Source of the DNA: a virus | Lineage: Duplodnaviria; Heunggongvirae; Uroviricota; Caudoviricetes | Reading direction: 5' to 3' (one strand) | Virus record (IMG/VR): IMGVR_UViG_3300012348_000120 | Length of the DNA stretch: 64,000 nucleotides | Part shown: positions 30,970 to 60,767 of the stretch, piece after piece | How the letters are laid out: every line of letters starts with the position of its first letter | How positions within the stretch are numbered: the first letter of the stretch is position 1 | Notes under the pieces: generated by a model | The model's input: the letters and a program-made list of their open reading frames with translations, nothing else | Databases searched by the model: none | Told to the model about the DNA's origin: nothing | Program-made: the position numbers and the translations under genes

Positions 30970-32295
30970 CTATTTTGCGTAGTAAGCATGTTCGCCAAAC
31001 GGCGGAACGATACGATCATTGCCATGAATGACAAACAGCGTATCGCAGTAGTGTTCATCGCCCCAAGAGCCGAAAGGATACCCATCGGTAAACATCACAA
31101 ACTTATGAGGTTGGATGTCGTTTTCTTCCATAAAGGTCCAGTTGCACACAAAGTCGGTGCCGCCGCAACCAATGATCTGGTAATCATTGATTTCGTCAGC
31201 ATTCATAGGAGTAAACTCCTTGAACGATTCTTCGTATACACGAGTATCAAACGTCCAAACCCGAAGGCGGAAATCTTGGAACTGAGTCATAATCCCTTGG
31301 ATTTCACCCATAAAATCCTGAAGCATATCGTGGGAGATAGAACCAGACACGTCCAGACCAATGCAAACATCAACCATTTGATCAGGGTCTTGAGCAGGAA
31401 GATAGATGCCCATCGACCGAGATTTTTTGGATTGACGCATCCAAGTATAGTCATTCTTCAGGCAGCTTTGAACACTCAGGTTCAGAAGTTCGCGCCAGTC
31501 CATCTTGGGTTCAGTCATAGACTGGATCAGACGACGAATTTCACCTGGGGTATTGCCAGCACCAGCCGATTGAGCAGCTTGAAGAACTGCTTGGCGCATT
31601 TGATCCTTGATTGCCTTAGCTTCTTCCTTGGTAATCTTGATCGGACCACTACGCCCAGTCGGATCATTCTTCATCTTGCCATCTTGGCCATCACCATCGG
31701 TGCCTTCGTTACCAAACAAGTGCATATCAAGCGTTTGCTTGCCCTTGCCCTCACCAGATTCTTTTAGTTTCTGGTAGATTTCTTCCGTATACATACCATG
31801 ATATTTACGGTCAAACAGTGCAGATTTCGGCATTTTACCGATGTTGCTTTCAACGCAGCCTTGGTTGACTTTGTAGTCAGCAGCAACGTTCCAAAGTTGC
31901 GGGTCACGATCAGCTTCAGCATAGTCAAACAGACGCCCACCCTCGCCGCAATGCGAGTATACGCAGTGAAGAACTTCATGGCCAACCACGAAGTCAATTT
32001 CTTCTGGCGTCAAGGTGCGGAAGAAGTTTGGATTGTAATAGAAATGCTTGCCATCAACCGCAGCCGTGGGACACCAGCCCTCAGTTTCAACCAGTTTCAG
32101 ACGAGTTGCCAACGTGCCAAAGAACGGATGTTTGATCAACATACGAACACGGCCAGAAACGATCATTTCTTTGACCGCCGCATCAGTATATTGAAACACA
32201 ACGGGTTCAGCCGAATTAGGGTCGACTTCAATGCCGTTCTTTTCAAGAACATCATCAAGAAGATCGTCAAGAGTTTTTGCGGGTTGATTCGACAT
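30970..32295 (-). CDS. metallopeptidase-like plus VWA domain protein (DUF2201 type)
   Basis: HEVLH (HExxH), DVSGS MIDAS, GGTDF and TDG. Confidence 0.85.
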   Translation of the reverse strand: MSNQPAKTLDDLLDDVLEKNGIEVDPNSAEPVVFQYTDAAVKEMIVSGRVRMLIKHPFFGTLATRLKLVETEGWCPTAAVDGKHFYYNPNFFRTLTPEEIDFVVGHEVLHCVYSHCGEGGRLFDYAEADRDPQLWNVAADYKVNQGCVESNIGKMPKSALFDRKYHGMYTEEIYQKLKESGEGKGKQTLDMHLFGNEGTDGDGQDGKMKNDPTGRSGPIKITKEEAKAIKDQMRQAVLQAAQSAGAGNTPGEIRRLIQSMTEPKMDWRELLNLSVQSCLKNDYTWMRQSKKSRSMGIYLPAQDPDQMVDVCIGLDVSGSISHDMLQDFMGEIQGIMTQFQDFRLRVWTFDTRVYEESFKEFTPMNADEINDYQIIGCGGTDFVCNWTFMEENDIQPHKFVMFTDGYPFGSWGDEHYCDTLFVIHGNDRIVPPFGEHAYYAK

Positions 32296-32424
32296 GGGTA
32301 TACCTTTCTTGTTTCTACTCTAACACTATAACCCATAATGGGATGGAGAGTCAAGTTTTATTTGTAAGTTACAAAGTAAAGTAACTTAGAAAAGATTAGA
32401 GGGGCCGAAGCCCCTCTAAGTTGA

Positions 32425-33552
32425 TCAGGCATTGTGGGCTTCGATGATCAGCTTGCCATACTTCTTGAAGAAGTCACCGATGCAAGGAACCTTGCGGGGT
32501 TCCAGAGGCAGCTTGTAAACCTTGAGAGCCGTGCGACCGCCAAGGACAGTCATTTCGGTATCAAAGTTTTCCATCATGAAGCGGAAGAAGTTTTCCGCCA
32601 TCTCGTAGAGTTTGTCCATATCGTTCTTGCCGTTCTTTTCAACAAACTCTTTCAGTTCGTAGCAGAGCGAAGCAGTCAGAGAGAACATCGCAGAGATTTC
32701 GTTGCTACCCTTGGGCAGATGCTTCACACGGCCTTCAAGAATGTCGGTCGGGTTGGGCATCGCTTGCGCCATCTGGCGGTGAGCCATAAACTTGGTGGCA
32801 ACACCATCACCAACCGTGCCAGCGAGAAGATCGTGCAGACGGTGATTGCTGATGTTCTCGTCTTCTTTCGGCAGAAGGTCCGAAACGAAGGTCCAAGAAC
32901 GCGGGGTCGAGAACGACCGAGAAGCAGTCCGAGGATCAAAGTTGAACAGGTCCATCTTGTTGGAAGTCAAGTAACCGACAACTTCTGGGTGAATGCGATG
33001 TTCCATCGCCCAAGTCTGCCAGTCTTCAAAGTCCACAGTGATTTCCAAGTGGACAAAGCGGTTGGCGAGAGGCGAAGGCATACGATATGCAACACCACGG
33101 TCGCTTTCACGGTTGCCAGCAGCAACGATCAGAACGTTGTCGGGCAGCTTATACGAACCAAGTCGGCGGTTCAGAATAAGTTGGTAAGCAGCGGCTTGCA
33201 CCGACTGAGGTGCTTGGTTCATTTCGTCAAGGAACAGAACCACATTTTCATACTGGGATGCCAGTTCTTCATCGGGAAGATCGGAAGGTTCAGCCCATTC
33301 CATCTTGCCAGTCACTTCGTTGAAGTGAGGAATACCGCGAAGGTCGGTCGGTTCCATCAGAGCCAGACGAAGGTCGATCATGTAACCGTTGATTTCTTGC
33401 GTGATGCTTTCAACGATTTCGGACTTGCCAACACCGGGCGGACCCCAGATGAACACGGGGCGCTTGCGGCGGAACGCATACGCGATTTCAGCTTTCAGAT
33501 CGCTCGGCTTGGTGAGACGAACTTCCATATCTGCGGTAGAAACTTTAGCCAT
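32425..33552 (-). CDS. MoxR-like AAA+ ATPase
   Basis: GPPGVGKS, LFLDE, AAGN, LANRF and TPRSW. Confidence 0.9.
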   Translation of the reverse strand: MAKVSTADMEVRLTKPSDLKAEIAYAFRRKRPVFIWGPPGVGKSEIVESITQEINGYMIDLRLALMEPTDLRGIPHFNEVTGKMEWAEPSDLPDEELASQYENVVLFLDEMNQAPQSVQAAAYQLILNRRLGSYKLPDNVLIVAAGNRESDRGVAYRMPSPLANRFVHLEITVDFEDWQTWAMEHRIHPEVVGYLTSNKMDLFNFDPRTASRSFSTPRSWTFVSDLLPKEDENISNHRLHDLLAGTVGDGVATKFMAHRQMAQAMPNPTDILEGRVKHLPKGSNEISAMFSLTASLCYELKEFVEKNGKNDMDKLYEMAENFFRFMMENFDTEMTVLGGRTALKVYKLPLEPRKVPCIGDFFKKYGKLIIEAHNA

Positions 33553-36747: not shown

Positions 36748-37836
36748 TTACCATCCTATCCGTTCCCAAGGAACGTCTTTATTTCCAAAGTGACCATATA
36801 CACAGTTCTTACTATACTCAGTAAAGTTAAACAAATCAAAGCGGTCAATGATGCCTTTTGGTGATAGGTCGATTTCTTTTCGAATGAAACGTTCAATTGA
36901 CGCATTATGTCCATTGCTTGATACGTAAATTGAGGTTGGTTGTTTTACACCAATAGCATAAGACAACTGAATTTGGCACCAATCTGCCATATCATCTGCG
37001 ACAACGTTCTTTGCCAACCATCTTGCCATATATGCAGCAGAACGGTCAACCTTGGTTGGGTCTTTCCCAGAGAATGCGCCACCACCATGTGGTGCAAATC
37101 CACCGTATGTATCCACAATTATCTTACGTCCAGTAACGCCCGCATCACCATCTGGACCACCGATGACAAAGTTTCCTGTTGGATTAATATGCCAAACAGT
37201 ATTTTCATCGATCAGGTTTCCCAATACTTTTTGTGCAGCTTGCTTGATCGGAGTCTTGATACTATGCTGAAAGCCTTGTTTGTGTTGATGGCTTACAACG
37301 ATCTGGTCAACTCGTTTTACGCGCCCACCCTCGTATTGCACACTTACTTGGCTTTTTGCGTCTTGCAAAAAGAAGTCATACCCATCAAGACGCATGGCTT
37401 TTAACTCTTTTAGAATCTCATGCGAGTAGTAGATTGGAGCGGGAAGATATGCACCATTCTCATTAGAGGCATATCCAAACATAATGCCTTGGTCGCCAGC
37501 ACCGAAGTCATCTGTCCCAAGCGCAATATCTGCACTTTGATTGTGAATACGGTTTACAATTTCAAGATTGTTCCAGTGAAAACCATCTTGTTCGTATCCT
37601 ATTTCTTTTACTTTGTTTCTTACGATTTCGTTGATTTCATCATTTGACACGTTGAAGTTTTTTACTTCTCCTGCCAAGGCAACAAAGTTTGTCGTAACCA
37701 TTGTTTCAATAGCTACACGTGTTGACGAATTTCCTGTCTTCAAACCAGCATCTACCAGTGCATCACTGATTTGGTCTGCTACTTTATCTGGGTGTCCGTC
37801 ACTCACACTTTCACTCGTAAAGATGTAGTTATTCAT
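36748..37836 (-). CDS. metK: S-adenosylmethionine synthetase
   Basis: FTSESVSDGHPDK, GAGDQG and GRKIIVDTYGG...GGGAFSGKDPTKVDRS. Confidence 0.97.
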   Translation of the reverse strand: MNNYIFTSESVSDGHPDKVADQISDALVDAGLKTGNSSTRVAIETMVTTNFVALAGEVKNFNVSNDEINEIVRNKVKEIGYEQDGFHWNNLEIVNRIHNQSADIALGTDDFGAGDQGIMFGYASNENGAYLPAPIYYSHEILKELKAMRLDGYDFFLQDAKSQVSVQYEGGRVKRVDQIVVSHQHKQGFQHSIKTPIKQAAQKVLGNLIDENTVWHINPTGNFVIGGPDGDAGVTGRKIIVDTYGGFAPHGGGAFSGKDPTKVDRSAAYMARWLAKNVVADDMADWCQIQLSYAIGVKQPTSIYVSSNGHNASIERFIRKEIDLSPKGIIDRFDLFNFTEYSKNCVYGHFGNKDVPWERIGW

Positions 37837-39104: not shown

Positions 39105-39860
39105 TTAGTTTCCAGTTTTTGCAGGAAGAATGTAGTCATATACGCCAAGACCAGAGTCAACCTGAATCATCATCGCACCCTGATCAGAGAACTTGATGGT
39201 CATGTTGCTTGTGTCTGCAAGGCGAAGAATAGTGTTTACTGTGCGCAATGGATACGACCAAGCTGCTTTCAACTCGCCAGATACATTAAGTGCAAATGGC
39301 AAGTCTACCTTGTCAGTTCCGTTGCTTCCGATTGAGAAAATAAGATTACCATTTACTTTCTTCACAGTGAACAGAGAGTCGTTTCCACCAAGAACACCAT
39401 CAAAGTAACGAAGGTCATTTACTGCTTTCTGAGTTGGCATAAACTCAACGTCCCACTTTGCACCTTTGAAGTTTGCGGTCTTGATTTGATCATCAACCAC
39501 TTCGCTACGAATGAGACGGTAGTTTGATTCAAACCCACCATTCATCTTGAATGAGATGCTTGCAGGAGAGGCTTCTCCATTGCGTTCTTCTTTGTTGACT
39601 ACAATGTCGGCGTCAACTTTTTTGCCTTCGGTATCTTCGCCAGAGTAGTTCAAGTATCCCTGAAGGACAGAAAGACGCCCAAATCCAACCTTGCCAGTGA
39701 GTGCATCCACTTTGTTATGTAGACGCCCTTTGAGAACGACTGAACGATTGTCGTCAAGTGCGTCAATTTTTGTTTCGTCACCCTCTGTGGTGACTTTCAC
39801 CGCTTGGATAATACCAAGTGAATGAGTATGTTTTACTATGTCTTTTAGAATATCACGCAT
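39105..39860 (-). CDS. DNA sliding clamp (gp45-like)
   Basis: About 250 aa near polB; C-terminal IKFSDQGAMMIQVDSG..YDYILPA. Confidence 0.75.
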   Translation of the reverse strand: MRDILKDIVKHTHSLGIIQAVKVTTEGDETKIDALDDNRSVVLKGRLHNKVDALTGKVGFGRLSVLQGYLNYSGEDTEGKKVDADIVVNKEERNGEASPASISFKMNGGFESNYRLIRSEVVDDQIKTANFKGAKWDVEFMPTQKAVNDLRYFDGVLGGNDSLFTVKKVNGNLIFSIGSNGTDKVDLPFALNVSGELKAAWSYPLRTVNTILRLADTSNMTIKFSDQGAMMIQVDSGLGVYDYILPAKTGN

Positions 39861-39890
39861 ATTGTGCTCCATTTATATTTCCTCAGTATA

Positions 39891-41327
39891 TCAAAATTCA
39901 AACAGGTTGTCAACTTCTTTGATTTCAGTTTTTTCCACTTCATCAAATATTTCATCTTCTGGTGTTGCAAACTCTATTCTTGCTTTTGCAATCTCCATAT
40001 AGTCAGGATCAAGTTCAATCCCAACAAACTTAAAACCTTCCAACATCGCGCCCTTACCAGTTGAGCCAGACCCCATAAATGGATCAAGGACAGTTCCATT
40101 TTTCGGAGTAACCATGCGAACCAAATAACGCATTAGGTCTGTTGGTTTCACAGTTGGATGGTTATTCTTCTTGGTTGGTGGATTGACCCAATCCTTTTCT
40201 TCGCATAGACAAGTATGCGCTTCAAGAGAAGAAGCACCACATTTAGAACATACTCTGCGAATGCCATTACCTTTTCCGCCAACCGATTTTGCCTCAAACG
40301 CATCCAATCCTTCATTTCGATCTTTCTTGGATGTTTTGGCGCAATAGAAGAAACGAGCGGCAGAACCATCATCTTTGTAACTATCCCAAGCTACTCTATT
40401 ATACTCGCCATAGCAGTTGGTGTTTTCATCACCAGTCTTGCTTTTCTCTTTTCCAGACACACTACCGCCAGCCTTTGTGTTTGGAAATAGTGAAACAACT
40501 TCTTCACTGCCATCATGAATTAGATTTGCTGGAAATCTTCCCTTGGCAGATGATGCAACTTCTTCACCAGCATATCCACCTTCGTATACATTCTTTGCCA
40601 TATTTCCAGTTTTCCATGATCCATTTCCACCAAGACGTGGGTCATCTACTTCTGGATTTGTATCGACACGGCAATCATCAATGTTGATGCCACCAGTTCC
40701 ATACTTCAATACATTAGCGGCAACAGTTTTTTCTTCTAATGGTTTTCTTGCAACAGTGATTGGTTCCAGTGCTGGTTTGAGTGCAGTCCCCCAACCTTCC
40801 CATTGCTTGGCTTCATCGGTCGCTGGTTCAAACTCATAATGATAATCATTTGCATTTTCTGCTTCCATCCAAGGGCGTGACCATCCTTCATTTTTGTTCT
40901 CGCCAGCAAGATGACCTTTAGTTTCTCTGTCTGCAAAATCTTCGTGTCCAGCTTTTACGCCACGTTTGACAGTGCGTTCAGCGCCAGCAGCTTTATCAAT
41001 TGCTTTGCTTACATCCATGGATTTTGGGAATCCACTTCCATAAACCCAAGCGATCATATCACGAATTTCAAAGCCCGCATCTTCAATACGAACTGCCATA
41101 CGATGTTGAGTGCGAGTGCCAGCAAATGCAAGCAAATACCCGCCAGGTTTCAATACTCGCAAACATTCTTCCCAAATCTCCTGAGATGGAACATCGTAAT
41201 CCCATTTCTTTCCCATAAAGGAAAGTCCATATGGTGGATCGGTTACGATACTGTCTACACTATTGTCTGGAAGTGTTTTTAGCACATCAAGACAGTTTCC
41301 GTTATGTAATGTATAGTTATTTTCCAT
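39891..41327 (-). CDS. N6-adenine/N4-cytosine DNA methyltransferase (beta-class motif order)
   Basis: TDPPY early; HPTVKP and LDPFMGSGST late; start taken at MENNY. Confidence 0.92.
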   Translation of the reverse strand: MENNYTLHNGNCLDVLKTLPDNSVDSIVTDPPYGLSFMGKKWDYDVPSQEIWEECLRVLKPGGYLLAFAGTRTQHRMAVRIEDAGFEIRDMIAWVYGSGFPKSMDVSKAIDKAAGAERTVKRGVKAGHEDFADRETKGHLAGENKNEGWSRPWMEAENANDYHYEFEPATDEAKQWEGWGTALKPALEPITVARKPLEEKTVAANVLKYGTGGINIDDCRVDTNPEVDDPRLGGNGSWKTGNMAKNVYEGGYAGEEVASSAKGRFPANLIHDGSEEVVSLFPNTKAGGSVSGKEKSKTGDENTNCYGEYNRVAWDSYKDDGSAARFFYCAKTSKKDRNEGLDAFEAKSVGGKGNGIRRVCSKCGASSLEAHTCLCEEKDWVNPPTKKNNHPTVKPTDLMRYLVRMVTPKNGTVLDPFMGSGSTGKGAMLEGFKFVGIELDPDYMEIAKARIEFATPEDEIFDEVEKTEIKEVDNLFEF

Positions 41328-41328
41328 T

Positions 41329-44070
41329 TTAAAACTCAAATAGATTATCAAATGTTTCAGAGTTATTAGTATCGTTCAAGTCCCAGTTCAAAACACCAAT
41401 AAGGTTATTGATCTTTTTAGTGATGATAGTGAATTCCATTTCGTTATTATCGAATGGCAACTCTTGAAACCAAGTTGGTAGTTTCAATTCATCAATCGGA
41501 TAAGCAATACTTGTAATTCCCATAGGATTGGACCGTAGCTTACATACAATGGTTTTCATCCCATCAGTAATTTCCATACTGTAATTGTCGCTGTTCATTC
41601 TACGAAGTCGGTTCCAGTTGATTGCCGCCAGCGCATGACCAACTGCACACTTGCCAGTTTTCTCAAATATCTTGGTGTGATTGGTCAGATTGTTTACTCG
41701 CTTAGGCGTTCCTTTTTGCCAAGGCGGCATTTTGCGAAACTCTTTCTTGAAGTCTTTGATCATCTGAATAACTTCTTTCTGTTCAGCATCAGTAAGAAGT
41801 TTCATAAGAACATCCTTCAAGAACTCCTGCATATAATCTGGAGTATCAGAACGTTTCAAGTCAAGGCCCATCGCTTTGACTTTTCCTGGTAGCCCATTTA
41901 TATCTCGGCGGGTTCCATCATCATCAAAGATGAGCATTGCATAGCGTTTTTTCTTGATGAACAATCCAGCAGTAGCGGCGTTTTCTCGCCCTGCACGAAT
42001 GATTTCACCTTGCTTGCGTGGAACATGGAAGAACGACTTCATAAAGTCTGGGAAACTTTCGTTGACTTGTTTTGCGATTTCGTCATACAACTCCATCACA
42101 ATCTCTTTACTCCATGCAATCTCGCCACTATCAATTCTGTCTTTGTATACTGGATACATAGAGAAATAGATAGAGTCAGTGTCGCCATAGATAATAGAAT
42201 CACCCTTGTAGTCATACGATCCAGCGATTACTTCATTGGTTTTACTGCCCATATGCCGTGTAATACAACGCCCAGTAAGAGTCGTTGACTGACCAATGCG
42301 TTTGTCATAGAAGCGGCAACCCGGATTTAGAATAGCACCGTAAAGAGAGTTCAAGTTGATCTTCTTCACCAACTGACGTTTATCCCAGAATGCAACTTCT
42401 TTACCTTGCCCAGAGTCACGTGCTTCTTTCATCTTGGCCTGAAGTTGCTTACGCTCACTATACCAACGTTCCAACAAACTTGGAATAATACCCTGCACAT
42501 CTTGTCTGAATACAGTTCCGTTTGCAGACAACGCCCAATTTAGTTCAGATGTGTTGAAAATCAGATCATAAACTTCTGCTCCTGTAAGAGTAGAACTACT
42601 TCCGTCTTCCATATCAAGAACTAATGGAACAACTTTGTCTCTTTCATTTACATAACGAAACTCTTCTGATGAGAACGTATCTTCCCATGCTTGCGGCGCA
42701 CCAAAACTTTTACCTACTGTCCGCTTACCTTCAAGAATTCGGTTAGTAATAAGTTCTTCTGTGTATGTTTGTCGTAGTTGCGCCATGATAGTTTCAGGCG
42801 ACATATTCAACGACCGAAGAACAGATGGGTATAGAGAGTTCAAGTCAATACCAGAAATCCATCGTTGAATCCCAGTCTTTGGCTGTGCAACGAATGCACC
42901 AGCCGCACGTTCCTTAGCAAGAAACTCTGCCAGTTCGTCGTCATCCATATCTGCGGGATCATCGGCGTCTTCTTCGTCCCAGTCTCTTGCTTTGCGATCA
43001 GGAACATGCATATCACGGCGATGTGCTTCATTGATAATAGCCTGTTCTGTAACTGCAACTGCACCCATCGTAGTTTTGATGAGAACTGTGTTGTCGTGTG
43101 CAATTTCATTGGCCAAGTCAATGAACCGAAGTTTCTTGTCCAAGTCAGCAATAAGCATAACGTCTTCGCGGTTATACTCAATGAACTTGTAGAAGTCTTC
43201 GTTATAGAGTTGGTCAAGAGTGCCTTCGTAAGCAACCTTTTTACGACCGAGTTCATATTCTGAAATCGCATCCAATGAGTAGGAATGCATTTCATGGTAT
43301 GTATACTTACGATATAGTTCAAGATAGTCCAAGTGAACCCGACCTACTAATTCGTAAGTGAGTTGATCCTTGCCGTATTTCTTAACATACTTCTCTTTTG
43401 GTTGCACATCCCAAAGGCATAGTCGCTTGATGTATTCTTTTCCAAGGACTTGGATAATTCTACGAACCGTGTATGGAATATCATAGCCTTCTGAGTTCCA
43501 ACCGCTGATAATGTCTGCATCATCAACGAGAGACAGAAAGTCACGTAGCATTTCTTTTTCGCTACGATACCATTTAGTGTTGTCAAACCGTGAACAGATT
43601 TTCTCTGCTTCTTCGTCGGACAAGCCCTTTGGCGGAATAGCCAACGTGATCAACTCTTGCATCCAGTCAAGGTAAACTGTGATGGCAGTGATTGGCATAA
43701 ATGCTTCTTCGGTGGATGAGAACCCACGCTCTTTGTCAAAGTCAACTTCGATGTCGTAAAAAGCAGTATGAAGAACAGGAGAATCAACTCCATTGTAGTT
43801 CAATGAAAGACACTGATTTTCTGGCTTGATGTCGCTCTCAAACAGCTTTTTTCCAGAGTTAATTTTCAGTTCTTTGTGAAAGTCTTTTGTAGTCTTGCAT
43901 CGGATTTGGCGAATCTTATCGCCAAAAATACTGCGATGCTGGCCGTTTTGATCCTTTACATAAAATGTTCTAATAGCGGGGTAATCTTTATATACCCGCT
44001 TTCCATTTGACCGTTCAACCACACGAACTAAGTCGTGCTTTTTGTCGTAATATGCATCAACGTATGACAA
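41329..44070 (-). CDS. family B DNA polymerase (gp43-like)
   Basis: Exo DIE; DLNSLYPS, KINLNSLYG, YGDTDS, KKRY; TTG start with AGGAG. Confidence 0.97.
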   Translation of the reverse strand: MSYVDAYYDKKHDLVRVVERSNGKRVYKDYPAIRTFYVKDQNGQHRSIFGDKIRQIRCKTTKDFHKELKINSGKKLFESDIKPENQCLSLNYNGVDSPVLHTAFYDIEVDFDKERGFSSTEEAFMPITAITVYLDWMQELITLAIPPKGLSDEEAEKICSRFDNTKWYRSEKEMLRDFLSLVDDADIISGWNSEGYDIPYTVRRIIQVLGKEYIKRLCLWDVQPKEKYVKKYGKDQLTYELVGRVHLDYLELYRKYTYHEMHSYSLDAISEYELGRKKVAYEGTLDQLYNEDFYKFIEYNREDVMLIADLDKKLRFIDLANEIAHDNTVLIKTTMGAVAVTEQAIINEAHRRDMHVPDRKARDWDEEDADDPADMDDDELAEFLAKERAAGAFVAQPKTGIQRWISGIDLNSLYPSVLRSLNMSPETIMAQLRQTYTEELITNRILEGKRTVGKSFGAPQAWEDTFSSEEFRYVNERDKVVPLVLDMEDGSSSTLTGAEVYDLIFNTSELNWALSANGTVFRQDVQGIIPSLLERWYSERKQLQAKMKEARDSGQGKEVAFWDKRQLVKKINLNSLYGAILNPGCRFYDKRIGQSTTLTGRCITRHMGSKTNEVIAGSYDYKGDSIIYGDTDSIYFSMYPVYKDRIDSGEIAWSKEIVMELYDEIAKQVNESFPDFMKSFFHVPRKQGEIIRAGRENAATAGLFIKKKRYAMLIFDDDGTRRDINGLPGKVKAMGLDLKRSDTPDYMQEFLKDVLMKLLTDAEQKEVIQMIKDFKKEFRKMPPWQKGTPKRVNNLTNHTKIFEKTGKCAVGHALAAINWNRLRRMNSDNYSMEITDGMKTIVCKLRSNPMGITSIAYPIDELKLPTWFQELPFDNNEMEFTIITKKINNLIGVLNWDLNDTNNSETFDNLFEF

Positions 44071-44601: not shown

Positions 44602-44688
44602 GTTTTTCCTCTGTGAATAAAAAAGGGAACCTCTGAATAGAAGTTCCCTTGAATATAACACACCAAGGTGTCAGAGTCAATCGTTATT

Positions 44689-46315: not shown

Positions 46316-49300
46316 TTATGCTACTTTGGTATTTAGGTTTCTACCGAATTCAAGTTTACGTTTAATGCTACTCAACACCTCAAAGAAAAGTTCTTTGACA
46401 GTATTAAGATTATCAAAGAAGCTAAAAAATGTTAAGCCAGGAACTTTTTCTGTTGCTACATTCATTACAGTAGTAATCAATCCACCAAACTGATCGGCAA
46501 AGTCAGACTTTACAATATTTGTTAGTATGGTTTTAACGCTATTTAAGTTTTGAACCATATACTTTGAAAAAGCATAAACTCCAAGGCTTCCTAAAAATCC
46601 AATTATGCCACCACGCTTTAATATTGATGCTGCAAATGTCACAATATTTTGAACCATATCTTTCAATGTGGCTATAACTGTTTCATTCTTGACTAATGCG
46701 ATTGCAGATGCCAGAACATTATTCAGTTGTTTTATCATTCCTCTTGCAGATTTTACCATCTGAGTGTATGCTGTTTGAAAGTATGTTTCATCTGTAAGAA
46801 CATCTTTGATTAAAATAGCAGCATCTTTCATAGTAAGAATCGTATTTGACAAGTCATCAATCGTATTTTGTGCTTTACTTCCTAACCACTTAGTTACGGA
46901 ATCCAGCATCGCTTCTTTCAATTGTGCTTCAGTAAGCATCTTGCGATCAGTAGTTCCATACATTTCTCTGAGTTTGGATACTGGTTTTCCGTCTTTTGAT
47001 ACTTTATTTCCAAACTTTGCAGCTTGCTTTTTAATTTCATTTGGTCCAACATCAATAGTAGTGTTGACTCCCTTTACGATTTTACCGACACCAGCGGTTT
47101 CATGAATGTCTTTGAACGTTGTTTGTGGAAAGTTGATAAGCATACTCAATCCATCTTTCGCAGGAAGATTGATACGAAATGCAGTTATTTTATGAACCTT
47201 TGCATTTTTAGCGGCAAGCCAACGATGATGCCCATCCAACACATAATTGTCCGAACTGATGATGATTGGCTTATTCATCTTACCATTTGTCATTGCAGCT
47301 TCTACGCCTTTGTCACTGAACTCTGATTGAGTTGAACTTAGCTCTGCTGGATCAACAGTTTCTTTTTTTATCTTGCTACCTTTGTCGTAGATATAACGAA
47401 ACAAGTCTTCATAATGCTTTTCGTCAATCTGTGGCATATGGCGTCTTGGAACACCAAGAGTGTCCTCTGGTTTTGGCTTTACAATTTTCAGTTCGTTTAG
47501 ATCACCCTCACTATGAATTTCTGGGTGTTCTGATGATCCTCCAATATCTTTGTAAGTCGCACCAAATTTATCAAGCATTCGTTTTAGTCTATCAACCTGT
47601 TCTTGGTTCGCAAGTGTCACTATCATATCAGAATCGCCCTGACCAAATTCATGTGGGTCTTGTTGGTTCAGTCTTGCGAAGTGCTGACCAAGTTTATACC
47701 AATCCAAGTCTCCTTTGGTGTCAATTACCAAAGTGTTTGGTGGCATAGTAATCAAGTCGTGTTGGTATCCTGTTGCATCTGGTTCAATCGCATCTTCATG
47801 AAATGCAGCATCGGTTGCTTTTTTTGCTACTTCGCCGCTTGGATGTTTTGGATTTATGGTTACAACTTCTCCGTTCATCAACTCTGATATGTTGGCAGTC
47901 TTTCCGATAGTATCAAGTAGTTGATGCAGCTTATCATTTGCATCATATCCATTTGTCTCGTAGTTTGATTTGCCTCTTACCTCTGTTCTTTTTCCAGAGT
48001 CAGTATTCAATATGTGAAGAACGTATAGATCGTTGTCACGTTCAAGTTGTAGCTTGTATGATTCATTCACATAACTTGGAGTTACGTCTTTGACACGAGA
48101 TGAGGATATGATTCTTGTTGGTATGTATTTTTTACCAGCAATTCTATAAGCCTTGAATCTATGATGCCCATCTATTACTTGAAATCCATTTCCCACTCTT
48201 CTAACTAAGATGGGTGGAAGTTCTTTTCCAGACTTTACCGCTTTGAGTATATTTTTTAGATTGGCTGCATATTGTGGATCATCAAACTTGTCGTCAGGTT
48301 CCAATACAGTTATTTTTGATACTGGCAGAATAGTAGTTTTTTCTGGTTTCTTCTGATCGTCTTGAACCCAAGAACCCATTTCGTTTGGGTCAGTGCTAAT
48401 CTCTGCCTTTGTAATAGCTTCTCCAATAGAATCATTTACCGATTCCATTGAAGGAGTTTTTGCTGGAACCGCCAGTAGTTTACTGAATGTTTTCTTTGGC
48501 TTTTTTGGTAATACGGTTAGGTATTCTTTTCTTAGTTCTTCTCGTTTTGCATTCAGTTCTTCAATATATGATCTGAGTTTTTGCCGTGTTGCTTCATCGG
48601 TCACTGTATCTCGTTGATCCATATATTTGTTAATCAAGTCAGTGACGCTATTGATTTCATTCTTGATTTCAGCAACGTTTTCGTCTCTTTCATCATCATA
48701 GATTGGAGCATCACTGTAAAGTAGGTTGTCACCTTCAACATGGCTATACTTCTCCACGCCGTTTTCTTTGTATGCTGCGAACACTGTCACGCTTGGGTCT
48801 TTTGACAACGCAACCCATATCTTTCTTCCACCCGCTGACTGCATAGAGTCTGCCTGAAGGAACAGACCAGCCTTTGTAACCAAGTGGGCATAGAATTTTG
48901 GCATCAGTCCTTTGCCTTGTAGTGCGGGGTCAAGTGCCGCCGCATGAATAACACAAGGTGATTTTGACGAACTACGAGTCATATGAACTAACGCATGCAT
49001 ATTAGTTTCCTTGTCACATAATAGTGCGTTTAGTTCACGTCCGTCTTTATCTATAAAGACGCGAAACTTTCCCATTGGTTCTACTTCGGTATACTTACTG
49101 TAATATCTTTTGATTGGAAAGCCCCACATATAGGACTTCCAGTCTTTTGATACTTTTACTGTTTCAATTTCTTCGCCAAGTTTTTTTTGTATTTCGCCAG
49201 TTTCATCGTCAACGGAATATTGACTGCGGAAGAATTCACTTCCATCATCTGTCATATCGGACACAGAAATCTTTTTGTCTGGAAACTCTTTGAATAGGTC

Positions 49301-52126
49301 ATCCACTACCATTTTGGCATAGCCTTTTCTACGGCTGTCTTCTGCTGTAATGACGTGCGAAATATATACTTCGTTGTCAACGATACTTACATCCACACCA
49401 GCTTTGATTACGCCATCAACCATTAGATACTTGGTTCCAAACGTTTCACCTTTGTAATGATCAGATACGGACACTGGGTTTATTTTGATATTCCCAGTGT
49501 TTTCTGTCATCTTTTTATTTTTTTTTAGTGATTCGGTTTTTGCTATTTTTGGTTTGTCATACATTGGATCATGAGCGGCATGAGCGAATAGATAAACATC
49601 TTCGTGTTCTTCATTCCAATTTTGGTTGCTTTGTGCATCGGACATTTCATCCTGCAACTTTTTTTCCATTGTTCTCAAATCGGTATATTCTTTTTTGAGA
49701 CGTGTAAGGGTGGCAGTGTCGGTTTTATCCATTGCACTGTAATCATCCCACACTTCGCGAATCTTATCTTGCACGGAATTAAGTTCTCTCTCAATCTCCT
49801 TGACTTCGTTTTTCAACTCAGTGTCATAGGTATGAAAACCACTGCGCAAGAAATCATCTACATCGTTGTCAATGTCTGATAGCTCCCAGTCGCCGCCATT
49901 ATTTTTTGCTGCGTATACTGTGATTCCTGGGATTTTTGATAGAGCGATCCATATCTTCTTTCCACCTTGCGATTGAAGATCGTCGCTGCGAAGTGTCCAG
50001 CCTTTCTTACATAGGTATGCGTATAGCTTTGGTGCAATACCTTTGCCTTGCCATGATGGATGAATGATGGTTGCTTTCGCAATCCAATATTCCATACCTT
50101 TCAAGTTACCGTAGTCGCGTTCAAACTCGATCAAGGCTACTGGTCTACGGTTCAACGCAGCGTCTTCATTCTTGTCTGTGACCAAAAACACTTTGCGTGA
50201 GTTGTTTCCGTATTGTTCTAAAACTACATCATACCCGCCAAGTCTGCCTATCTTTTTTACATATCTGGTATTCTTTCCTTCCCAGTCGGTGCTTCCAATG
50301 TATCCCCAACTTTTTGGTAGGTCAACAGAGGATACTTCGGTGATGGATTCGTTCTTTGGCTTTTTGTCTGCCACTGCCAACAGATAAATGATTTCGTTCT
50401 TTTGGCGACTTAGACTGTCGTCATTATAAATTTTATCACGCTCTTTTGTAAGTTTGCGAATATGATCATCTAAGTAATCCATATCTGCTTGCATCTTTTC
50501 CAGTTGTTTTGGATCAGATACTTTTTCAGATTGTGCCAATAACACATTGTATTGAGAACGGGCAGATTTGATTTCATTTGTGTATTCATCTACGCCTTCA
50601 TTGCGATAGATAGGGAAATCACCTGACAATACTTCTTCGCCATCAACGGCGGTATAGTCTATCTTACCATGAACATCTTCTTTTGCTGCGTAAACAGTAA
50701 TACCAGGAACTTTCGCCAACTCAGCCCAAATTTTCATTCCGCCCTTGGATTGGTCTGTATCTGAACGAAGGAAGAATCCTCTCTTGATCAAATACGCATA
50801 AATCTTTGGCATAAGTTTTTTGCCTCTTAGCTTTTCACTAAGTGCCGCACCCTTTACTTGCCATAGCGTAACAGTATCTTCTGTGTAGTTCTGAGTAAGT
50901 AAAAGTTCACCTTCAATAATAACAGGATCACTACTCTCTTTTGATAATTGTGAGGTAGTTATGAATATAGAACGGTTCATAACGCCAATCTTTTTCTGAT
51001 ACAGACTTATTGGGCCGATAGTTCCGATAAGAGATATACCAGAATACATAAGCAAATCTTTTCCTACGTTTCCTGGGTTCCAATCGCTTTCAACGCCGAC
51101 CTGTGAAATGCGATCTTCTTTGATACCCTGACGTTCTTTATACATTCTTTCAAGTTGACGCGCATTGATTCCGCTGAATGCACGTGCAATATCAAACGCA
51201 TAACCGCCAACACTCTGTCGGTTACCTTGTGTTGTGACTAAACGATGCAACGCTTGTAGTGCTGCACCATAAAAATTTTCAGTTGCTTTTGCTGCAAGTT
51301 TTGACTGATACTCATCACGATTTACAGCTTCATTTGTAATAGCTTCTTCTTCGTCGCTGGTGTCTCCAGTGATTTGATAAGTTTTGCCCTTTACTGTGAA
51401 CTCTTTTTTGCCAGCTTTTATTGCATTCATTCTCGCATCAGTGAATGGATTTGATTCTCTCATCACAGTATCGGCAAGTTTCACACCAGCACGATCAGCC
51501 AGCTTTTTTAGTTTCAGTAGTTGTTTGCCTGTCTTGAATGCAGCTTTTAGAACTGCAACCGTAGTTTGGCCAACGACCGCCATTACAATCAAATCAGTCA
51601 ATGGGGGTATTGAACCCAAATCTTCTGTGATGTCTGCTTCGCCTACCAATCTTCCTTTATATGGATGTGGTTGAGTTCCAGTTCTTGACGGCTTTGAGTT
51701 TTTTGGCAATGGTTCTGAGCCACGAACTTGATCTACACTCTCAACTGGAAACTCTCTATCTGGCGACTTGAAGTTTTTCTTTCTCATAACGGTTTTGGCA
51801 ACCAAGTCTAATTGATTGTTCTGTCTATTCCATTTCAATATGAATGGGATATTTACGTCAGATTCCAAATCCTTCATAATGGCTTCTTTGTCTGGACCCA
51901 TTTGTGCAATTGGTTTGCCCCAACGCTTGTATTCTTTGGCGAACAACCGACCAAGTTCGCGAATAGTAATTTGTTTTCCGTTACGCTCGTCATTCACACG
52001 ATCAAGAAAGTGACGAGTAAATTCAACGTCAATGCCAATTTTATTGAATACACTATCAATGTGGACTTCAAGTGCGTCCAATGCAGCTTTTGTTACTTTA
52101 CTATCAATATCGGTTATGTTTACCAT
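46316..52126 (-). CDS. 1936-aa multi-domain polyprotein (RNase-like, 4 GNAT, 2 ParB-like, hydrophobic C-terminus)
   Basis: Four (Q/R)xxGx(A/M)-type GNAT motifs, two DGHHR motifs, N-terminal FTRHFLDR. Confidence 0.75.
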   Translation of the reverse strand: MVNITDIDSKVTKAALDALEVHIDSVFNKIGIDVEFTRHFLDRVNDERNGKQITIRELGRLFAKEYKRWGKPIAQMGPDKEAIMKDLESDVNIPFILKWNRQNNQLDLVAKTVMRKKNFKSPDREFPVESVDQVRGSEPLPKNSKPSRTGTQPHPYKGRLVGEADITEDLGSIPPLTDLIVMAVVGQTTVAVLKAAFKTGKQLLKLKKLADRAGVKLADTVMRESNPFTDARMNAIKAGKKEFTVKGKTYQITGDTSDEEEAITNEAVNRDEYQSKLAAKATENFYGAALQALHRLVTTQGNRQSVGGYAFDIARAFSGINARQLERMYKERQGIKEDRISQVGVESDWNPGNVGKDLLMYSGISLIGTIGPISLYQKKIGVMNRSIFITTSQLSKESSDPVIIEGELLLTQNYTEDTVTLWQVKGAALSEKLRGKKLMPKIYAYLIKRGFFLRSDTDQSKGGMKIWAELAKVPGITVYAAKEDVHGKIDYTAVDGEEVLSGDFPIYRNEGVDEYTNEIKSARSQYNVLLAQSEKVSDPKQLEKMQADMDYLDDHIRKLTKERDKIYNDDSLSRQKNEIIYLLAVADKKPKNESITEVSSVDLPKSWGYIGSTDWEGKNTRYVKKIGRLGGYDVVLEQYGNNSRKVFLVTDKNEDAALNRRPVALIEFERDYGNLKGMEYWIAKATIIHPSWQGKGIAPKLYAYLCKKGWTLRSDDLQSQGGKKIWIALSKIPGITVYAAKNNGGDWELSDIDNDVDDFLRSGFHTYDTELKNEVKEIERELNSVQDKIREVWDDYSAMDKTDTATLTRLKKEYTDLRTMEKKLQDEMSDAQSNQNWNEEHEDVYLFAHAAHDPMYDKPKIAKTESLKKNKKMTENTGNIKINPVSVSDHYKGETFGTKYLMVDGVIKAGVDVSIVDNEVYISHVITAEDSRRKGYAKMVVDDLFKEFPDKKISVSDMTDDGSEFFRSQYSVDDETGEIQKKLGEEIETVKVSKDWKSYMWGFPIKRYYSKYTEVEPMGKFRVFIDKDGRELNALLCDKETNMHALVHMTRSSSKSPCVIHAAALDPALQGKGLMPKFYAHLVTKAGLFLQADSMQSAGGRKIWVALSKDPSVTVFAAYKENGVEKYSHVEGDNLLYSDAPIYDDERDENVAEIKNEINSVTDLINKYMDQRDTVTDEATRQKLRSYIEELNAKREELRKEYLTVLPKKPKKTFSKLLAVPAKTPSMESVNDSIGEAITKAEISTDPNEMGSWVQDDQKKPEKTTILPVSKITVLEPDDKFDDPQYAANLKNILKAVKSGKELPPILVRRVGNGFQVIDGHHRFKAYRIAGKKYIPTRIISSSRVKDVTPSYVNESYKLQLERDNDLYVLHILNTDSGKRTEVRGKSNYETNGYDANDKLHQLLDTIGKTANISELMNGEVVTINPKHPSGEVAKKATDAAFHEDAIEPDATGYQHDLITMPPNTLVIDTKGDLDWYKLGQHFARLNQQDPHEFGQGDSDMIVTLANQEQVDRLKRMLDKFGATYKDIGGSSEHPEIHSEGDLNELKIVKPKPEDTLGVPRRHMPQIDEKHYEDLFRYIYDKGSKIKKETVDPAELSSTQSEFSDKGVEAAMTNGKMNKPIIISSDNYVLDGHHRWLAAKNAKVHKITAFRINLPAKDGLSMLINFPQTTFKDIHETAGVGKIVKGVNTTIDVGPNEIKKQAAKFGNKVSKDGKPVSKLREMYGTTDRKMLTEAQLKEAMLDSVTKWLGSKAQNTIDDLSNTILTMKDAAILIKDVLTDETYFQTAYTQMVKSARGMIKQLNNVLASAIALVKNETVIATLKDMVQNIVTFAASILKRGGIIGFLGSLGVYAFSKYMVQNLNSVKTILTNIVKSDFADQFGGLITTVMNVATEKVPGLTFFSFFDNLNTVKELFFEVLSSIKRKLEFGRNLNTKVA

Positions 52127-60690: not shown

Positions 60691-60767
60691 TGGTGGCCCT
60701 AGTGGGACTCGAACCCACGACCAATAGTTTTAGGGACTGCCGCTCTAACCAACTGAGCTACAGGGCC
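60691..60767 (-). tRNA. tRNA with CUA anticodon (putative amber suppressor)
   Basis: GGCCCTG acceptor, canonical D and T arms, loop CC-CTA-AA, ACCA end. Confidence 0.8.

Follow-up and report, generated by a model that had tools for sequence, protein, structure and literature searches.

A polymerase-type C-terminal motif on a jumbo-phage DNA methyltransferase encoded between the polymerase and a predicted PCNA-type sliding clamp

The sliding clamp of phage RB69 has been co-crystallised with the 11 C-terminal residues of the polymerase, and the clamp-binding tails of gp43, gp55 and gp33 are described as interchangeable (PMC2988020). T4 alpha-glucosyltransferase (alpha-GT) is reported to co-purify with the clamp gp45 and is proposed to act during replication (PMC13216743, citing Sommer 2004). 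DNMT1 is recruited to PCNA by a short motif (PMC9690074). Group 2 jumbo phages are described as having a PCNA-superfamily clamp loaded by an RFC-type ATPase, and beta-class orphan adenine methylases similar to M.MboIIA and M.MunI occur in them (PMC7824862). The literature searched, which excluded most subscription journals and all supplements, yielded no phage methyltransferase described as having a clamp motif. The stretch analysed here (the window) is 64,000 nucleotides (nt) of the virus record IMGVR_UViG_3300012348_000120, and its source resembles the jumbo phages PA5oct and Atu_ph07 and is of freshwater type. In this window, a DNA methyltransferase (MTase) encoded between the DNA polymerase and a predicted sliding clamp ends with the same six residues, DNLFEF, as the polymerase. 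It is fairly probable that the MTase end, VDNLFEF, is a clamp-binding motif that recruits an orphan N6-methyladenine (m6A) methylase behind the replication fork, probably as a defence against host restriction.

The genes and motifs in question are as follows.

41329..44070, minus strand: family B DNA polymerase (PolB), 913 amino acids (aa), TTG start (PF00136, E 3.5e-33; PF03104, E 2.4e-17; phrog_262, E 2e-194)
41332..41352, minus strand: polymerase C-terminal motif FDNLFEF, predicted clamp-binding motif (from sequence)
39891..41327, minus strand: beta-class N6-adenine/N4-cytosine DNA methyltransferase, 478 aa (PF01555, E 3.5e-34; phrog_67)
41229..41240, minus strand: MTase catalytic motif IV DPPY, residues 30-33 (from sequence; D30, P31 and P32 nearly invariant in 22 homologues)
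40065..40085, minus strand: S-adenosylmethionine (SAM)-binding motif I DPFMGSG of the MTase, residues 415-421 (from sequence; invariant in the 22 homologues)
39915..39968, minus strand: acidic linker of variable length in the MTase, residues 454-471, predicted disordered (pLDDT; gapped, divergent alignment)
39894..39914, minus strand: MTase C-terminal motif VDNLFEF, predicted clamp-binding motif (from sequence and homologue ends)
39885..39913, minus strand: sigma70-type promoter-like site for the clamp gene, TTGACA-17 nt-TATACT (11 of 12 consensus bases; best of 24 sites in 10.5 kb)
39105..39860, minus strand: predicted PCNA-type sliding clamp (predicted fold; frame open to ATG 39872, likely start 39860, MRDIL)

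The polymerase, MTase and clamp genes lie head to tail. The MTase starts with an ATG at 41327, one base past the polymerase stop, and ends at 39891 with KEVDNLFEF*; the polymerase ends with NSETFDNLFEF*. The initial annotation had described both the shared hexapeptide and the position of the MTase between the two replication genes, and the sequence bears this out. It was also right that the codons differ synonymously at four of six positions (GAT AAT CTA TTT GAG TTT in the polymerase, GAC AAC CTG TTT GAA TTT in the MTase). At the DNA level, the two gene ends are identical at 16 of the last 21 nt versus 15 of the 39 nt before them. A six-frame search of the window finds DNLFEF only at these two ends. 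Among the 2701 pairs formed by the 74 open reading frames (ORFs) of the window, this pair alone shares a C-terminus of more than two residues. Chance was rejected as the origin of the shared peptide, since the expected number of six-residue shared C-termini for these pairs is 9e-5. A search for further clamp clients covered the window, where the tail pattern occurs in 2 of the 74 ORFs, and a close relative (contig G001, 203 kb), where it occurs in 2 of 311, again the polymerase and the MTase. Counting the V or F before DN (VDNLFEF in the MTase, FDNLFEF in its cognate polymerase), the motif is better written h-x-x-L-F(-E-F). A canonical PIP box reads Q-x-x-h-x-x-a-a, with the glutamine four residues before the first hydrophobic pair. 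This glutamine is absent here (I in the MTase and S in the polymerase at that position) and only a PIP-like core is present.

The case made in the initial annotation depended on 39105-39860 being a clamp, which the predicted fold upholds. An AlphaFold2 model built with 86 homologues has a mean pLDDT of 92. The rows listed in a Foldseek search with this model are all PCNA, alone or in a complex (the best with E 3e-11; TM about 0.67-0.69), and a second structural aligner matches 225 residues to H. volcanii PCNA (Z 18.3, rmsd 3.1). The protein is thereby predicted to have a two-domain PCNA fold over its whole chain. Its sequence has no Pfam or PDB match, PF09116 and the gp45 structures included. 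Among the top matches listed, the model appears nearer to PCNA than to T4 gp45, which is not one of them, while kinship with gp45 is still compatible with this result. The earlier picture of T4 gp45-type docking is supported in part, by the clamp identity and the conservation of the tail, but the closest solved folds are PCNA and the motif is h-x-x-L-F(-E-F). Clamp homologues, which mostly start with MRDIL or MQDIL, were found in 50 cultured phage records, with PA5oct relatives (Pseudomonas, 43%) first, and with Vibrio 2.275.O, Phosso, SCTP-2, Atu_ph07 and 121Q-like phages. In four records (PA5oct, Atu_ph07, 121Q and 2.275.O), the homologue lies directly or within two genes after the polymerase. 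The assignment annotates a gene that is called hypothetical in most cultured relatives.

The MTase scores 119.1 bits against PF01555, for which the curated cut-off is 26.7. DPPY precedes DPFMGSG, which is the beta order of motifs, and the closest solved relatives are CcrM, DpnA, M.RsrI and M.MboIIA. A motif IV of the DPPY type suggests m6A, and this is the chemistry suggested for the MTase by its sequence. When its neighbours were scanned against Pfam and PHROGs, no restriction nuclease was found beside the MTase, whose flanking genes are those of the polymerase and the clamp. The enzyme would therefore be an orphan and not part of a Type II restriction-modification system with a cognate endonuclease beside it. 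In the predicted structure, whose mean pLDDT is only 60, the last helix ends at residue 453 and residues 458-478 have pLDDT below 50. Together with the gapped alignment, this modest-quality model points to a flexible and variable linker. Linkers of different length and sequence are found in 22 close homologues, in which the penultimate F is at least 90% conserved. Homologues end with VDNLF(E/D)F, IDSLFEF or FNDLFDFE, so that the tail is kept in orthologous enzymes, as the initial annotation had expected. In the clade of the window enzyme, from a tree made without the tails, 11 of 13 rows match xxLF(E/D), one has the motif plus an extension and one has no motif. The MTase of L179 is 822 aa long; two close homologues (P0005 and P0014) are likewise about 340 aa longer with intact ends, and the extra sequence suggests an inserted element such as an intein.

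Tails are also found far from the polymerase. In what follows, labels with L, G and P denote loci, contigs and proteins of relatives, and the family is the PA5oct/Atu_ph07-like clade unless stated otherwise. On five family contigs, xxLF(E) tails are present on seven of eight MTases that adjoin clamp-loader genes or lie 28-125 kb from the polymerase and clamp genes. In G054 (317 kb), the polymerase ends with TNFDDLFEF at 211 kb and a clamp homologue is at 210 kb. PF01555 genes lie at 87, 110 and 175 kb, and all three encode tailed proteins (LLKNLFE, VFNNLFTTL and LPSDLFE in this order); the pattern occurs in 8 of 439 ORFs of this contig. In G055, two MTases 28-31 kb from the polymerase (TNFDELFEF) both end with LPSDLFE. 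The MTases of G064 and G053 end with LPSDLFSEDN and LPSALFE. A clamp-loader-like gene was recognised by eye on G054 and G055; none was found within the 64-kb window. The polymerase motif itself, F-x-x-L-F-[DES]-[FL], ends all 113 family polymerases in the fetched loci, a redundant set with 16 distinct ends. In G054 (C1:210992-215341) and PA5oct (L526:1-4411), an inserted gene divides PolB into two pieces, the C-terminal one of which bears the tail; the inserted gene of PA5oct is annotated as a Hef-like homing endonuclease. The PA5oct polymerase ends with FDSLFGW.

A different tail is found with a different clamp. In the T4-like contigs L006 and L065, a PF01555-family MTase that ends with TLE(D/E)FF comes directly after a polymerase that ends with TLEDFF. 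In G017, which encodes gp45, the polymerase ends with TLEDFFG and an MTase three genes away with TLEEFFA. In G015, which also encodes gp45, the polymerase ends with DLSDFFG and two MTases about 62 kb off with TLGDFL and LLGDFL. Judged from these sequences, the tail type would follow the replisome, with xxLF(E/D)F in the PCNA-type clamp family and TLE(D/E)FF with gp45. In the PolB and gp45 searches of contigs with T4-type tails, the matches are mostly fragments (3-26% complete), and none of the 15 records at least 90% complete has PF00136 over cut-off or PF09116.

Across the MTase family, T4-like phages included, 142 distinct tails (265 sequences) were compared with 1146 neighbouring ORFs. Terminal LF[ED]F? 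and L[DE][DE]FF, both patterns defined post hoc, are each found in 16 tails versus none of the ORFs, and QxxLF in 12 tails versus four ORFs. In a held-out set, [LFM]F occurs in the last five residues of 12 of 40 tails versus 10 of 542 ORFs, and both phage-type patterns are in 0 of the 40 tails. In a FastTree tree of the MTases with tails removed (138 of 142 rows kept), the tail types are clustered yet interleaved, and this does not prove co-evolution. Of the co-variation of polymerase and MTase tails that the initial annotation had looked to, the part that stands is that tail type goes with replisome type.

The tail is thus kept while the linker diverges, tails occur far from the polymerase, and the motif switches to the T4 type in phages with gp45. 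Since the MTase shares the polymerase tail, and related MTases keep such a tail even at a distance from the polymerase, the enzyme is likely to attach to the predicted clamp of the phage itself. VDNLFEF, on a predicted floppy acidic linker, would dock in the same pocket of this clamp that the polymerase tail would use. The clamp would carry the MTase at or behind the fork, where adenines in newly made duplex phage DNA would be methylated, and this methylation would probably shield the phage DNA from host restriction. Among tetranucleotides of the window, GTAC is at 0.01 and CCGG at 0.08 of the expected number. Both are also avoided in G001, and G054 avoids GTAC and CATG. Such avoidance is consistent with restriction pressure on these sequences. 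The palindrome bias in the window did not reveal the target site of the MTase.

The tail of the window shares its DNA with a predicted promoter. The -35 box lies within the MTase codons for V-D-N, and the promoter spacer encodes NLFEF and the stop. In each of 100 loci examined, a matching promoter-like site precedes the gene for the clamp. Because of this overlap the tail DNA is not free to vary, and the window tail is under two constraints in the same DNA, the peptide and the clamp promoter. The earlier claim that the peptide and not the DNA is conserved is weakened accordingly. That the putative clamp promoter fixes the D and the spacing of the window tail is a point against clamp recruitment, as are several signs that inserted genes capture polymerase 3' ends, which the sequences indicate does happen. 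In L339, the DNA at the end of the small methylase, over about 33 nt of tail and promoter, is nearly identical to the polymerase end of L105, a phage whose site is empty, and a non-coding DRLFEL relic is found in the promoter of L291. The gap between polymerase and clamp is empty in the loci of 10 relatives and holds other genes in others. The GC content at third codon positions (GC3) is 0.29 in the MTase versus 0.40 in the polymerase, a hint that the MTase may have arrived later. All this would fit a tail that is only a passenger: an inserting gene would capture or copy both the polymerase 3' end and the clamp promoter, and constraints on the promoter would preserve the peptide, which would have no role in the enzyme. 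Against a passenger, tails occur 28-125 kb from the polymerase, beside clamp-loader genes and outside any promoter overlap. Moreover, 10 of 18 in-frame gene ends that do overlap the promoter read DIxxx (DIDV, DIGIE or similar) with no LF, and in L291, L296-L308 and L339-L346 the tails are encoded upstream of the -35 box; the promoter alone therefore does not yield the motif. Of the 17 promoter rows without overlap, a single one has LFE in frame, and gap inserts that are not DNA enzymes have no tails. A pure passenger is improbable.

Tail losses also weigh against clamp recruitment of the MTase. The tail is absent from the MTase of G066, from the close homologue P0010, from 15 of 28 distinct small-methylase ends of the family and from the TGT-like protein of PA5oct (described below), and 76 of the 142 tails of the MTase family match none of the three patterns. 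PF01555 finds no gene over cut-off in two complete relatives, G002 and G003, which makes the MTase gene accessory. Such frequent loss would suit an enzyme that binds the clamp but is not coupled to the fork, being tethered to clamp-marked DNA in general (left-behind clamps, recombination or late-transcription sites) or bound with little consequence. T4 gp45 is described as serving late transcription as well (PMC9690074, PMC2988020). Alpha-GT binds gp45, yet its output is reported to be set by expression strength, and its share of modification does not depend mainly on clamp binding (PMC13216743). Repeated placement by polymerase, clamp and clamp-loader genes and retention across two clamp types nevertheless suggest a selected link to replication, and general tethering seems unlikely. 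Short hydrophobic C-termini serve several docking roles, and the common partner might be a clamp loader, a single-strand binding protein, the host beta clamp or a protease adaptor. QxxLF-like ends are present on some members of the MTase family, but the QxxLF enrichment was not replicated in the held-out set (1 of 40 tails versus 2 of 542 ORFs, P 0.19), another result against clamp recruitment, and an extension to the host beta clamp is weak for this reason. Against another partner, different phage clamp types go with different tails, and in RB69 and T4 the C-terminus of PolB is an established ligand of the clamp (PMC2988020). Another partner is very improbable. Clamp recruitment of the MTase is preferred to these alternatives.

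The tail is also present on products of some other genes in the gap. In some relatives the gap holds a small methylase (phrog_799, E 3e-31) that is unrelated to the PF01555 MTase. Its tail is present in 13 of 28 distinct ends within the family and 0 of 8 outside, and several of these tails lie upstream of the clamp promoter. Iyer et al. (PMC7824862) mention small methylases of group 2.2 that may act on RNA, and the phrog_799 methylase might or might not be one of them. Tails are also found on a 202-aa protein that has restriction-nuclease-like features (score 0.92) and on one of 186 aa in which a similar motif was recognised by eye. Their genes lie next to that of the small methylase, immediately upstream of the clamp:

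L292:6626-7186: restriction-endonuclease-like protein with a polymerase-like tail
L306:9453-10061: restriction-endonuclease-like protein with a polymerase-like tail

Downstream of the clamp, a TGT-like protein (feature score 0.93, Pfam match on 17% of cluster members) ends with VSDLF(G/A/S) in marine relatives. In Vibrio 2.275.O it (gp468) ends with NNDLFGW and the polymerase with NTDLFDW. Four gap inserts have no tail (an insert with a flavin-binding fold, a GCV_T-domain protein, and proteins of about 260 and 900 aa), and none of the four shows any sign of acting on DNA. A wider and more tentative idea, which we hold to be possible but doubtful, is that the clamp serves as a tool belt. In large phages, at least two unrelated methyltransferase families, restriction-like nucleases and the TGT-like enzyme would acquire a transferable tail that suits the clamp of the phage in question. 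In the present clade, the polymerase-clamp junction would be the tagging site, where an insert can capture the polymerase tail and the clamp promoter and so become a clamp client in one step. In L291 and L296-L308, a gene of about 780-910 aa lies between the small methylase and the clamp. It has an alanine/glutamate-rich repeat and an SWTF or LWTF end, and by eye it resembles an outer-membrane barrel protein.

Contigs of public runs from four studies cover the polymerase-MTase-clamp region, the best being from freshwater and microbial-mat metagenomes. The polymerase/MTase junction is bridged by contigs of runs X1, X2, X3 and X5 and the MTase/clamp junction by X1 and X5. An assembly artefact was rejected as the source of the arrangement because these contigs from other runs span both junctions. 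The window has a gene pair of a MoxR-type ATPase and a vWA peptidase at 30970-33552, a pair described for group 2.2 jumbo phages by Iyer et al. (PMC7824862). A SAM synthetase, MetK (three Pfam domains), is encoded at 36748-37836 (minus strand), 2 kb downstream of the MTase; relative L106, whose polymerase-clamp gap has no methylase, also has one. A long metabolic run at 198-28141 includes nine radical SAM proteins, two FkbM-type methyltransferases, a carbamoyltransferase, an aminotransferase and an HAD hydrolase. A second strong promoter-like site at 44652-44680 (minus strand) is upstream of the DsbA-like gene that heads the polymerase operon, and is followed by a 12-pair terminator-like hairpin at 44623-44650 (minus strand). 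A protein of 1936 aa with repeated GNAT-like stretches and a ParB-like domain, encoded at 46316-52126 (minus strand), is presumably of the polyvalent-protein type. One of 16 tRNA genes (60691-60767, minus strand) has the amber-reading anticodon CTA. TAG is the stop in 4 of 55 ORFs of at least 100 aa, and wholesale recoding is not evident.

If binding holds, clamp-coupled DNA methylation, known from DNMT1 and PCNA, extends to phages. It would also help to explain how orphan phage methylases could keep ahead of host restriction when DNA is copied rapidly, and the tail would serve as a simple sequence marker by which the replisome clients of jumbo phages can be listed. The MTase locus compares with the known systems in the following way. 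Like T4 gp55 as described in PMC2988020, the MTase has a linker and a hydrophobic/acidic tip. As in the clamp-binding motifs of T4 and RB69, the short C-terminal tip follows a variable linker, is shared by the polymerase and another protein, and belongs with the phage's own clamp. Unlike in T4 and RB69, a DNA methyltransferase would be the client, h-x-x-L-F-(E/D)-F takes the place of LDFL as the motif, and binding is inferred from sequence. The clamp differs from gp45 in that it has no detectable gp45 sequence match and its top listed structural matches, from a predicted model, are PCNA. Like DNMT1 with PCNA, the system would combine a DNA methyltransferase, a clamp of (predicted) PCNA fold and a short motif. 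Unlike DNMT1, which maintains 5-methylcytosine in eukaryotes, the phage enzyme is a beta-class amino-methyltransferase whose terminal motif lacks the PIP glutamine. The PIP box of DNMT1 is reportedly internal. T4 alpha-GT is likewise a phage DNA-modifying enzyme linked to the phage clamp, while its chemistry and phage group are different; the enzyme used in its pull-down was C-terminally tagged, and the portion of PMC13216743 available names no tail motif. The methylases of group 2 jumbo phages share with the MTase the enzyme class, the phage group, the PCNA-superfamily clamp and the MoxR/vWA pair, and in the available part of that account (PMC7824862) no clamp-binding tail is reported for them. 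Clamp-bound DNA modifiers are thus already known from DNMT1 with PCNA and alpha-GT with gp45. To these are added here the predicted PCNA fold of the clamp, the promoter overlap with its control, and the test of tails far from the polymerase in a jumbo-phage clade.

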